64,000 bases of DNA from Escherichia coli (GCF_003334315.1 NZ_QOWR01000001.1); one strand, 5' to 3'; shown: positions 46,491-49,167, counted from the stretch's first letter. Program-made: numbers and translations. The notes: generated by a model not told the origin, from the letters alone.

Positions 46491-46726
46491 GATAGTGCCC
46501 TTTTTCTGAGATGGAAAAAGGGTGTCATTCAAAATCGACATACCTTCCTTTAAGGTATTTATTTGCCCAATACATATATTGAGATTTAACTCATAATTAC
46601 TTCCTAAAGTGTAATATTTTATTTTTTAATATATACGCCTACAATTTCCTGGAGTAAATAAATAACAATTAACAAGCATAATATTGCCATTGATAAAATA
46701 GCATGCCATAAAAGGACTTTTCAGGG

Positions 46727-47905
46727 ATGAGTAATATTGTTTACCTGACAGTAACGGGAGAACAACAAGGAAGCATCTCCGCAGGTTGTGGGACTTCTGA
46801 GTCTACAGGTAATCGTTGGCAGAGCGGGCATGAGGATGAAATATTTACATTCTCACTCTTAAATAATATTAATAATACGGGGCTTGGTTCACAGTTCCAT
46901 GGTATAACATTTTGTAAATTAATTGATAAAAGCACTCCATTATTTATTAATTCCATTAACAATAATGAACAATTATTTATGGGATTTGACTTCTATCGAA
47001 TAAATAGATTTGGTAGATTGGAAAAGTATTATTATATACAACTAAGAGGCGCTTTTTTATCGGCTATTCATCACCAGATCATTGAAAACCAACTGGATAC
47101 AGAAACAATAACTATTAGTTATGAATTTATCCTCTGTCAACATCTTATCGCAAATACCGAGTTCAGCTATTTGGCACTCCCTGAAAATTATAACCGTTTG
47201 TTTTTACCAAATTCAAAAAACCAAACAAATAATCGTTTCAAAACGTTAAACAGCAAAGCTATTGGCAGGCTACTTGCTGCTGGTGGCGTATACAATGGGA
47301 ACATTGAAGGATTCAGAGATACTGCGGAAAAACTGGGTGGAGATGCAATAAAAGGCTATGATCAAATACTAAATGAAAAAACAGCGGGCATAGCGATAGC
47401 AACAGCATCTATTCTTTTAACAAAGCGTTATAATGTTGATACATATACAGAAATAAATAGTTACTTAGGCAAACTTAGAGGTCAACAAAAACTTCTTGAT
47501 GGTATAGACATAATAGAAATAATATACATTAAGAGACCTTCAAAAGACTTAGCTAACTTACGAAAGGAGTTTAATAAAACTGTAAGAAAAAATTTTCTTA
47601 TCAAACTTGCAAAAACCTCCGAAGCATCTGGAAGATTCAACGCCGAAGACCTTTTAAGAATGAGAAAGGGCAATGTTCCTCTAAATTATAATGTTCACCA
47701 TAAACTATCTCTAGATGATGGTGGTACTAATGATTTCGAAAATTTAGTATTAATCGAAAACGAACCATATCATAAAGTTTTTACTAACATGCAATCACGA
47801 ATAGCTAAGGGAATATTAGTAGGTGAAAGCAAAATCACTCCTTGGGCCATTCCATCTGGCTCAATTTATCCTCCCATGAAAAATATTATGGACCACACAA
47901 AATGA
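46727..47905 (+). CDS. yhhZ: Hcp-like protein with C-terminal HNH-type nuclease motif (putative polymorphic toxin)
   Basis: 392-aa ORF; N-terminal ~160 aa Hcp-like; C-terminus NYNVHHKLSLDDGGTNDFENLVLIENEPYH matches the HNH/Endo VII pattern HH..GG..N..N..H. Confidence 0.85.
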   Translation: MSNIVYLTVTGEQQGSISAGCGTSESTGNRWQSGHEDEIFTFSLLNNINNTGLGSQFHGITFCKLIDKSTPLFINSINNNEQLFMGFDFYRINRFGRLEKYYYIQLRGAFLSAIHHQIIENQLDTETITISYEFILCQHLIANTEFSYLALPENYNRLFLPNSKNQTNNRFKTLNSKAIGRLLAAGGVYNGNIEGFRDTAEKLGGDAIKGYDQILNEKTAGIAIATASILLTKRYNVDTYTEINSYLGKLRGQQKLLDGIDIIEIIYIKRPSKDLANLRKEFNKTVRKNFLIKLAKTSEASGRFNAEDLLRMRKGNVPLNYNVHHKLSLDDGGTNDFENLVLIENEPYHKVFTNMQSRIAKGILVGESKITPWAIPSGSIYPPMKNIMDHTK

Positions 47906-48396
47906 TGACTAAAACCCAAATAAATAAATTAATAAAAATGATGAATGATTTAGACTATCCATTTGAAGCACCGCTCAAGGAATCATTTATTGAAAGTATA
48001 ATCCAAATAGAATTTAATTCTAATTCAACTAATTGCCTGGAGAAGTTATGTAATGAAGTTAGTATTCTTTTTAAGAATCAACCTGATTATCTTACTTTTT
48101 TAAGAGCAATGGATGGATTCGAAGTTAATGGATTACGATTATTTAGCCTCTCGATTCCAGAACCTTCAGTTAAAAACCTTTTTGCCGTAAATGAATTTTA
48201 TAGAAATAATGATGATTTCATAAACCCTGATCTACAAGAACGGTTAGTGATCGGGGATGATAGCATTTCAATATTTACTTATGACATTAAAAGTAACTTT
48301 TTTGAAATTAGAGATAATATTGGCACAGAAAATATATTCAGTTCGTTTAGTGATTTCTCTTCATTCTTAAACGAAATCATGGACAGTTGTTCATAA
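47902..48396 (+). CDS. yrhA: Putative cognate immunity protein (SUKH/Smi1-Knr4-like), start-stop coupled to yhhZ
   Basis: Track ORF 47842..48396; ATG at 47902 overlaps the yhhZ TGA (ATGA); segments PDYLTFLRAMDGFEVNGLRLFSL and LVIGDDSISIFTYD resemble SUKH immunity proteins. Confidence 0.65.
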   Translation: MMTKTQINKLIKMMNDLDYPFEAPLKESFIESIIQIEFNSNSTNCLEKLCNEVSILFKNQPDYLTFLRAMDGFEVNGLRLFSLSIPEPSVKNLFAVNEFYRNNDDFINPDLQERLVIGDDSISIFTYDIKSNFFEIRDNIGTENIFSSFSDFSSFLNEIMDSCS

Positions 48397-48490
48397 TAAT
48401 CAAAAGGAAACAAAAATCATTGTAAACCATGCCATCTTTTTAGAGATTACCAGCAGAAAATTCCTTGTTCGAAATTTAGCAGTGCAAGCT

Positions 48491-48646
48491 ATGGAAAAAC
48501 TTACAACGGAACTACACTCCTTAAGTGAGATGGACCGAAGACATGTAGTCTCTATTTTAGCCGAAATAGCTAATGGCTATGATGATTTTAATGACATGTT
48601 GATTTATTTAGAATTTTACCCGAATCATAAGATTCTGATATCTTAA
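48491..48646 (+). CDS. Small 51-aa ORF (possibly yrhD), function unknown
   Basis: Hand-translated ATG ORF MEKLTTELHSLSEMDRRHVVSILAEIANGYDDFNDMLIYLEFYPNHKILIS; below the 60-aa track cutoff. Confidence 0.3.
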   Translation: MEKLTTELHSLSEMDRRHVVSILAEIANGYDDFNDMLIYLEFYPNHKILIS

Positions 48647-48845
48647 ATAAGAAAATCCCGTTCGACGTTCTGAAAAAGAAATCATAAAATATTAGCAGAT
48701 ACTTATTTCGTGACTATATCTTATCCGATGAACTTTTTTCAAAACCAGCATTTAATAATATCTTTGACGAAGATGAACGCGTCTTTGCTCAATGTATCAC
48801 ACAGGAATAATAATATAACACTCAACAATAATATTTATTATAATT

Positions 48846-49130
48846 ATGATTACTTATCACGACGCATTCGCGAAAGCGAACCATTACCTTGATGATGCAG
48901 ATCTCCCGGTCGTCATTACTCTACATGGACGCTTTAGCCAGGGCTGGTATTTCTGTTTCGAAGCACGAGAATTTCTCGAAACTGGAGATGAGGCCGCGCG
49001 CTTAGCTGGTAACGCACCTTTTATTATTGATAAAGACAGTGGTGAAATTCATTCTCTGGGAACGGCAAAACCGCTGGAAGAATATCTACAGGATTACGAA
49101 ATAAAAAAGGCTACCTTCGGCTTGCCCTGA
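48846..49130 (+). CDS. yrhB: Small acidic protein YrhB (function unclear; possible orphan immunity-like cassette)
   Basis: 94-aa ORF MITYHDAFAKANHYLDDADLPVVITLHGRFSQGWYFCFEAREF... Confidence 0.85.
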   Translation: MITYHDAFAKANHYLDDADLPVVITLHGRFSQGWYFCFEAREFLETGDEAARLAGNAPFIIDKDSGEIHSLGTAKPLEEYLQDYEIKKATFGLP

Positions 49131-49136
49131 CAAAAT

Positions 49137-49159
49137 AGCCCTCTTCCCACGAAGAGGGC
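49137..49159 (-). terminator. Hairpin in yrhB-ggt convergent gap (probable ggt terminator)
   Basis: GCCCTCTTC-CCAC-GAAGAGGGC inverted repeat; on the minus strand followed by TATTTTG. Confidence 0.5.
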
Positions 49160-49167
49160 CGCTAACC

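Follow-up and report, generated by a model that had tools for sequence, protein, structure and literature searches.

We analysed a 64-kb stretch of the Escherichia coli chromosome running from ompR/envZ to livJ (the window), in which an AT-rich islet lies between yhhY, encoding an N-acetyltransferase, and ggt. The islet holds four open reading frames (ORFs), yhhZ, yrhA, yrhD and yrhB (Table 1), and their layout is the one that an earlier reading of the DNA alone (the sequence-only reading) had described: yhhZ, an overlapping yrhA, a 51-aa ORF and yrhB. Strain LR-27 is collinear with the window at 99.2-99.5% identity, and everything annotated in the collinear 64 kb belongs to the ordinary core gene set, for example the mal, glg, gnt, ugp and liv genes. 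No structural genes of a type VI secretion system (T6SS) are annotated in this collinear genome across the whole 64-kb window, in line with the sequence-only reading.

Table 1. The yhhY-ggt islet and its features, in window coordinates.
Feature	Position	Strand	Description or evidence
AT-rich variable islet, yhhY/ggt junction	46491..49136		2646 bp; GC content, allele alignment
yhhY-yhhZ intergenic region, presumed yhhZ-yrhA promoter region	46491..46726	+	GC ~0.33-0.35
yhhZ, specialised Hcp effector, Hcp-ET1 type by sequence	46727..47905	+	392 aa; ORF, identity to 55989
Hcp/TssD tube-protein domain of YhhZ	46727..47167	+	residues 1-147; TIGR03344
YhhZ C-terminal toxin module, helical pre-toxin subdomain and predicted colicin/pyocin-type DNase	47246..47905	+	residues ~174-392
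Predicted HNH (His-Me finger) catalytic core, H324-H325 ... N339 ... H349	47693..47776	+	VHHKLSLDDGGTNDFENLVLIENEPYHK
yrhA, cognate immunity protein (ETI1) by sequence, predicted SUKH fold	47902..48396	+	164 aa; translationally coupled to yhhZ
yrhD, ORF of doubtful coding status	48491..48646	+	51 aa; homologue distribution, dN/dS
yrhB, putative orphan immunity gene, Imm35 family	48846..49130	+	94 aa; Pfam Imm35
ggt terminator hairpin, conserved right boundary of the islet	49137..49160	-	GCCCTCTTCCCACGAAGAGGGC; terminator-like site

The GC content of the islet is 0.332, against a mean of 0.530 (standard deviation 0.017, minimum 0.487) in 561 windows of equal length taken elsewhere in the 64 kb (z = -12). 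At third codon positions the GC fraction is 0.26 in yhhZ and 0.24 in yrhA, compared with 0.57 in yhhY. Alignment with the empty-site, yrhB-only and O157 alleles places the left edge of the islet at the stop codon of yhhY (46490) and the right edge at the terminator hairpin of ggt, where homology with all other alleles restarts; the islet was at first taken to reach 49167, about 30 bp too far, a trivial difference. At least four alleles occupy the site: the full islet, yrhB only, an O157 allele and an empty site. The O157-type allele carries a different AT-rich insert with a DUF4225 gene in place of the islet in 343 of 5426 complete E. coli genomes (the set used for all genome counts below), mainly O157:H7. 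Presence/absence polymorphism and deviant composition mark the region as a horizontally acquired islet, as had been proposed from its base composition. A repeat search of the islet for flanking direct repeats like those of attachment (att) sites or insertion sequences (IS) gave only short AT-rich chance matches, and neither an integrase gene nor a tRNA gene lies near it. Immediately ahead of the ggt terminator, the O157:H7 Z1816 allele (1700-3510) keeps a short piece that looks like the beginning of yrhB (ATAATTATGATTATATATTACGGAGCA...); this suggests that one cassette replaced another at the site.

YhhZ begins with a T6SS tube-protein domain. TIGR03344 matches residues 1-147 over positions 1-161 of its 167, with E 3.8e-34 and 118 bits where the cut-off is 58.9, Pfam T6SS_HCP (PF05638) matches at 2.5e-11, and the N-terminus also matches the PDB Hcp structures 3he1, 6a2v and 5mxn. 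The Hcp-like N-terminus noticed earlier is thus borne out.

The remainder of YhhZ is a separable toxin module that shares 50-71% identity with proteins carrying other N-termini and is matched by PHROGs 31266 and 14497 at ~1e-56. Pfam HNH by itself matches YhhZ weakly (E 0.013, residues 322-343). A profile of the module, built from 17 homologues over YhhZ residues 162-392, detects pyocin S2 and colicin E7 through their DNase domains (E ~5e-4), and its alignment to colicin E7 covers the helix preceding the active site as well as the ELHH motif. An AlphaFold2 model of the module reaches a mean predicted local distance difference test score (pLDDT) of 79, and above 85 over the nuclease part. Foldseek searches with this model return the DNases of pyocins S2 and AP41 and of colicins E7 and E9 with probability 1.0 and a root-mean-square deviation of 2.6-3.0 A over ~80 residues. 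Residues H324-H325, N339 and H349 are invariant across the 17-sequence family alignment, where they align to the colicin E7 ELHH motif. Because profile matches, modelled fold and invariant HH/N/H residues agree, we assign the C-terminus of YhhZ as a predicted colicin/pyocin-type His-Me finger DNase; the HNH-type C-terminus that was suspected from sequence, weak in Pfam, is upheld by the module profile and the fold. A classification of His-Me finger proteins that lists YhhZ as a group of its own, group 32, agrees with the DNase call (PMC5714182). YhhZ is full length, with the catalytic motif intact, in its dominant protein cluster of 13,190 member sequences.

The module opens with a helical subdomain (residues ~174-243, 47246-47455) of the form KTLNSKAxGRLLAAGGVYNGNIEGFR...TAGxAIAxASxLL. 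Over all enterobacterial N-terminal types it is the most conserved part of the module, above the nuclease itself. It is absent from a related Bacillus phage toxin described below and has no Pfam family. We considered membrane insertion by the hydrophobic stretch TAGIAIATASILL (residues 219-231) and dropped it: it spans only 13 residues, which the model folds into a helix of the pre-toxin subdomain.

The ATG of yrhA and the TGA of yhhZ share an ATGA, an overlap of 4 nt. YrhA belongs to NCBIfam family NF038335 (E 1.5e-36, 125.5 bits against a cut-off of 55). Scanned directly against Pfam at E <= 10 it has no match, the SUKH profile included, and a sequence search of PDB with YrhA or YrhB alone gave chance antibody matches or none. 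A HMMER search of 1.84 billion representative proteins retrieved 67 YrhA relatives. Among 36 of these that were aligned, 11 match Pfam SMI1_KNR4 (SUKH-1) at E <= 0.001 and others match SUKH_5 or SUKH_6; the family profile matches the SUKH structure 2icg at E 0.0011. The AlphaFold2 model of YrhA has a pLDDT of 90.9 and a predicted template modelling (TM) score of 0.87. Its best 13 PDB matches are all SUKH proteins, including 2icg, YobK (2prv, ranked second), 3d5p, yeast Knr4 and 2pag, with probabilities of 0.80-1.00 and TM-scores of 0.39-0.61. Judged by modelled fold and superfamily, YrhA is a SUKH protein. Of the earlier description of YrhA as SUKH-like, the fold and the transitive homology hold, and a direct Pfam match is missing. 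YobK itself is encoded beside the LXG toxin gene yobL in a Bacillus subtilis toxin-antitoxin operon (PMC8321402).

The yhhY-ggt region of E. coli 55989 contains the same four genes. YhhZ is identical at 390 of 392 residues and YrhA at 163 of 164, and YrhD and YrhB are fully identical. Strain 55989 is one of those in which an effector named Hcp-ET1 has been placed; the Hcp-ET proteins are said to have their primary description in Ma et al. 2017 (Virulence 8:1189). Reviews and a preprint present Hcp-ET1 as an orphan DNase of Hcp-HNH architecture from strains STEC004, O104:H4 C227-11 and 55989 (PMC6730261; PMC6099711; bioRxiv 10.1101/2024.03.05.583533). According to the same sources, ETI1, encoded downstream, neutralises Hcp-ET1, and delivery depends on the T6SS called T6SS2 and not on T6SS1. 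The preprint names 55989 and O104:H4 as reference strains for Hcp-ET1/ETI1 (bioRxiv 10.1101/2024.03.05.583533). Because the window's proteins are nearly identical to those of 55989 at the same locus, the window locus is, at the level of sequence, Hcp-ET1/ETI1. It shares with the published pair its locus, an Hcp N-terminus, an HNH DNase C-terminus, a downstream immunity gene and a position away from the T6SS cluster, and we see no substantial difference in sequence. The features that define the Hcp-ET1 subclass (an Hcp domain, an HNH DNase extension, a downstream immunity gene and identity to the characterised pair) are all present.

Strain 55989 encodes a complete T6SS2 (tssA-M, two hcp genes, vgrG and rhs) at tRNA-Asp/yaf, ~3.7 Mb from the islet; the same location is given for T6SS2 in the literature (bioRxiv 10.1101/2024.03.05.583533). 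The Hcp domain of YhhZ is 37% and 30% identical to the two Hcp proteins of this cluster. Since the 55989 T6SS2 lies so far away, an orphan position is the normal state of the islet and a 64-kb window free of T6SS genes is what would be expected. The proposal that YhhZ is an orphan effector awaiting a T6SS encoded elsewhere agrees with the published biology of Hcp-ET1/ETI1 and with the distance seen in 55989.

The toxin module and its partner travel together. A YrhA-family gene always stands 9-19 bp downstream of the module in the related loci that we examined, and the two proteins diverge in step: toxin identity drops from 71 to 51% as that of the immunity protein drops from 68 to 30%. In every related locus the pair is richer in AT than its own flanks. 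In Citrobacter koseri the syntenic yhhY-ggt site holds the module as an Hcp fusion, followed by its immunity gene. Enterobacter, Leclercia, Erwinia and Pantoea fuse it to a non-Hcp N-terminal domain, Pfam DUF8093 (PF26362). An Enterobacter contig shows, ~2 kb upstream of its DUF8093-HNH/YrhA pair (3047-4335), a 161-aa Hcp ORF overlapping a 153-aa Ntox44 ORF and then a 135-aa ORF, possibly an Hcp-toxin fusion that has been frameshifted or split, together with its immunity gene.

A third N-terminal type occurs next to conjugation genes. Enterobacter kobei IncHI2A plasmid pC16_001 (NZ_CP042579.1, 5578-7155) encodes a 353-aa HNH protein whose toxin module shares 47% identity with that of YhhZ and whose N-terminus, of ~140 aa, is different. 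A YrhA-family gene follows, and the pair adjoins the conjugal-transfer genes TraG-N/TrhH. A Pantoea dispersa contig (6001-7581) likewise encodes a toxin with this third N-terminal type, which shares 75% identity with the IncHI2 plasmid protein, and a YrhA-like partner. This pair lies on the opposite strand within the conjugation cluster of an integrative and conjugative element (ICE) comprising TraC_F_IV, DUF3438, DUF2895, RAQPRD, TraG-D_C and DtrJ-like genes. Of the 462 plasmid records with the module, 433 are typed as conjugative and three of the 462 are apparently mislabelled chromosomes; most of the records come from Enterobacter, Salmonella, Klebsiella, Citrobacter and E. coli. The conjugative context was looked at in detail for the one plasmid and the one Pantoea ICE. 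We regard it as unlikely that the IncHI2/ICE variant is a conjugation-associated toxin, whether delivered by a type IV secretion system or acting in exclusion or addiction, and that, linked to this, the islet persists in lineages without T6SS2 mainly as immunity against relatives or plasmids that carry such toxins.

The cassette also reaches a Gram-positive host. Bacillus phage SPR (OM236515.1, 1058-3415) encodes a 628-aa toxin whose C-terminal 147 aa are 44% identical to YhhZ residues 244-385, and the gene downstream encodes a protein of 152 aa reaching 169 bits against the YrhA family model. The N-terminus of the phage toxin looks LXG-like, by sequence and by literature. Across phyla, the cassette is common to toxins of type VI and, presumably, of type VII secretion. 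Such movement between delivery systems is the textbook pattern of polymorphic toxins and lends strong support, by comparison, to the toxin and immunity assignments.

Several known systems resemble the islet in part. The DNases of colicins E7 and E9 and of pyocins S2 and AP41 share with YhhZ the His-Me finger (HNH) fold and the HH...N...H motif, and their preceding 'FRKKFW...' helix region aligns with YhhZ, at an identity of just 17-28% over ~80 residues. They differ in delivery, which uses receptor-binding and translocation domains and not an Hcp fusion and a T6SS, and in immunity, which is conferred by a four-helix Im protein where YrhA has the SUKH fold. Bacillus LXG toxins of type VII secretion with SUKH antitoxins (YobL-YobK; the yokI position of SPbeta-like phages; PMC8321402) have a similar C-terminus and a YrhA-family partner; their host is Gram-positive, their N-terminal delivery domain is another one, and the helical subdomain 174-243 is missing. 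Orphan T6SS effectors with a PIX domain, including the PIX-HNH protein Pse5, are likewise two-gene modules of Enterobacterales with swappable C-terminal toxins, HNH among them (bioRxiv 10.1101/2023.07.16.549128); the N-terminus of YhhZ is Hcp instead of PIX, and six accessions of DUF8093-HNH proteins had no match among the PIX dataset entries listed. [quoted passage not shown] Its nuclease domain, immunity families and chromosomal location are all different.

Pfam Imm35 (PF15567) covers YrhB over the whole model (positions 1-85 of 85, E 4.6e-23). Upstream of yrhB there is no toxin ORF, and the 199-bp spacer and yrhD match no family. Because no toxin gene stands upstream, yrhB appears to be an orphan immunity gene. 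Its GC content of 0.456 is above that of the rest of the islet, and in some genomes it stands alone at the site. In the literature YrhB figures as a small protein resembling a chaperone (PMC10723866). The 51-aa YrhD, which likewise matches no family, has homologues in E. coli only, many of them truncated. The annotation of alleles 96-97% identical to the window treats it as a pseudogene, interrupted by an internal stop, and the ratio of nonsynonymous to synonymous substitution rates (dN/dS), 1.8-2.1 from few substitutions, points to no purifying selection. We conclude from these comparisons that yrhD is probably a non-conserved or decaying ORF and not a functional gene. The slot downstream of the pair varies in other genera: Erwinia has a Colicin_immun (PF09204) gene there (contig 8149-8418) and Citrobacter koseri an uncalled ORF of ~80 aa (about 9700-9950). 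By analogy, varied small genes at this position, yrhD and yrhB in E. coli, fit orphan immunity cassettes.

The full islet (>=80% coverage) is present in 3758 of 5426 genomes and yrhB in 4049-4069 of 5426, so that about 300 genomes have yrhB alone. The T6SS2 sheath genes tssB-tssC occur in 2184 of 5426 genomes at >=80% coverage, and in 2280 when any match is counted. By these counts alone, at least 1478 of the 3758 islet carriers (39%) are without T6SS2 sheath genes. O157:H7 is stated to carry T6SS2 (bioRxiv 10.1101/2024.03.05.583533); if so, the 343 genomes with the O157-type allele have T6SS2 and no islet, and the bound rises to ~1800. BL21(DE3) and K-12 derivatives retain the islet, and E. 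coli B and K-12 laboratory strains are named as the exceptions in a species where T6SS genes are otherwise widespread (PMC6730261). An IS1 or IS4 element lies inside yrhA, with yhhZ still present, in K-12 lineages and in other genomes; the split of K-12 yrhA by IS1 is on record (PMC12428005). H-NS-bound 'promoter islands' have been mapped inside yhhZ and yrhA in K-12 (PMC3661553, Table 1), which fits H-NS silencing of the islet.

Selection was estimated from the window and two alleles 96-97% identical to it, so that the following dN/dS values rest on small counts: 0.41-0.46 for yhhZ, 0.18-0.22 for yrhA, 0.11-0.65 for yrhB and 0.03-0.05 for the 3' part of yhhY. The toxin gene is loosely constrained and the immunity gene yrhA more strongly. 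The 3' end of yhhY (46200-46490) is itself unusually divergent, with a synonymous divergence (dS) of 0.27-0.29 against ~0.05 in the adjacent islet genes for the same genome pairs, and an identity of just 86% to the empty-site allele. The pattern points to old allelic classes, to recombination at the hotspot edge, or to a spread of the islet more recent than that of its flank.

We hold with a probability of about 85% that the locus encodes a T6SS Hcp-DNase effector, its SUKH immunity protein and an orphan Imm35 immunity gene. The Hcp domain would build YhhZ into the T6SS tube; this step is read from the domain, and T6SS2-dependent delivery is taken from the literature. After firing, the attached HNH DNase would degrade the DNA of a neighbouring cell, the fold and motif being our own results and the activity a published one. 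YrhA, made from its overlapping start, would bind and neutralise the DNase in the producer and its siblings, where again the pairing comes from this analysis and the neutralisation from published work. YrhB would provide stand-alone immunity against a different, non-resident toxin, and YrhD probably corresponds to no functional gene. The islet would always be an orphan, fired by a T6SS2 encoded elsewhere on the chromosome. Where T6SS2 is missing, the toxin would be silent cargo, and just the immunity genes would possibly be of use. Hetero-hexamers have been suggested to accommodate six bulky C-terminal modules in the Hcp ring (bioRxiv 10.1101/2024.03.05.583533). We infer the fit of the modules into the ring, the role of the helical subdomain, protection by YrhB and the state of the locus in the window's own genome.

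Several points weigh against this picture of a delivered effector. Because at least 1478 carriers are without T6SS2 and K-12 and B strains keep the islet, the mechanism could not operate in a large share of carriers. K-12 tolerates IS1 in its immunity gene, and dN/dS of yhhZ is about tenfold above that of its neighbour yhhY. DNase-dependent killing, neutralisation and T6SS2 dependence are known second-hand, from reviews and a preprint that cite Ma et al. 2017. One preprint moreover reports that T6SS2 of E. coli strains that make Shiga toxin (STEC) shows no antibacterial activity against DH5alpha.

The sequence-only reading had also raised the option of a relic, and this applies in many lineages alongside the effector reading, namely in the 39% or more of carriers without T6SS2 sheath genes. 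Whether the islet is dormant here and in most carriers, an undelivered toxin kept by H-NS silencing or drift or as an 'immunity island' in which yrhA and yrhB guard against T6SS2-armed E. coli, is a serious possibility that we entertain tentatively. It draws on the carriers just counted, on retention in T6SS-less BL21(DE3) and K-12 derivatives (PMC6730261), on H-NS binding reported in K-12 (PMC3661553), on the genomes with yrhB alone, and on a dN/dS far higher in yhhZ than in yhhY and tighter in yrhA than in yhhZ. The tolerated IS1 and IS4 insertions in yrhA (PMC12428005) cut both ways: they suit a dormant locus, but they speak against strong selection for immunity in those lineages. A decayed toxin would also be hard to reconcile with a yhhZ that is full length and intact in its motif throughout the dominant cluster, with dN/dS values still below 1, and with the active T6SS2-dependent killing reported for STEC004. 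A relic or immunity-only state does not conflict with the family assignment, and it is probably the case in a large minority of carriers.

Two further readings would dispense with delivery by a T6SS. That YhhZ acts without any T6SS, as an intracellular or released nuclease (bacteriocin-like, or in stress or biofilms) or together with YrhA as an addiction module, could explain why T6SS-less strains retain the islet and why conjugative plasmids, which often carry addiction modules, have the cassette too. We judge it improbable: the N-terminus is a full-length, high-scoring Hcp domain without another known role, delivery is reported to depend on T6SS2 (PMC6730261; bioRxiv 10.1101/2024.03.05.583533), and K-12 is viable with an IS1-interrupted yrhA, so that cells survive without the immunity gene at native expression. 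Judged indirectly, the lethality or growth arrest that follows loss of the antitoxin in a type II toxin-antitoxin system is not what the carriers of IS1 or IS4 in yrhA, which still have yhhZ, display. An anti-phage role, with the HNH nuclease and its SUKH partner forming an abortive-infection or other defence system, seems very improbable indeed. An AT-rich variable islet at a hotspot with alternative cargo alleles would suit it, HNH nucleases do occur in defence systems, and the cassette is also found in SPbeta-like prophages. Yet PADLOC returned no family at E <= 0.01 for YhhZ, YrhA, YrhD or YrhB, the N-termini fused to the nuclease are secretion or delivery domains (Hcp, and LXG-like in the phage protein), and SUKH and Imm35 are families that supply immunity proteins to polymorphic toxin systems. 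The Hcp-DNase effector with its immunity genes remains the reading that we prefer.

The feature is already known, as yhhZ/yrhA and as Hcp-ET1/ETI1, and a specialist would find nothing here surprising. The locus is a compact example of a polymorphic toxin-immunity system in the chromosome of the most-studied bacterium, T6SS-less laboratory strains included. Mildly new are the lower bound on carriers without T6SS2, the non-conservation of yrhD and the cassette beside IncHI2/ICE transfer genes. A modest question follows from the counts: ~70% of E. coli keep the islet, yet at most ~42% carry the T6SS2 said to deliver its toxin. The results matter mainly for annotation, in which yhhZ should stand as a toxin gene and not as a tube-protein gene, and yrhA and yrhB as immunity genes. 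A 'conversion of methionine to cysteine' has been assigned to the E. coli yhhZ-yrhAB cluster (PMC3309015); this appears to be a confusion with the unrelated yrhA/yrhB of Bacillus subtilis and illustrates the annotation hazard.

A scan of the islet for promoters and terminators gave matches no commoner than in shuffled sequence, except for the ggt terminator; the promoters yhhZp5/p7 have been placed upstream of yhhZ (PMC12428005). An Rfam scan of 45800-49400 found no match inside the islet at the gathering threshold; a snoR69Y match there, at 28.7 bits against a threshold of 45, was set aside as chance. Elsewhere in the window, GC falls below 40% only in 17401-18000 and 61601-62200; synteny identifies these as the intergenic regions malT-malP and livK-panM, so they are regulatory DNA instead of islands. 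Outside the islet, the gene for the small RNA RyhB lies between yhhX and yhhY on the minus strand (45800-45851, extending below 45800), with 57.3 bits against a gathering threshold of 55.

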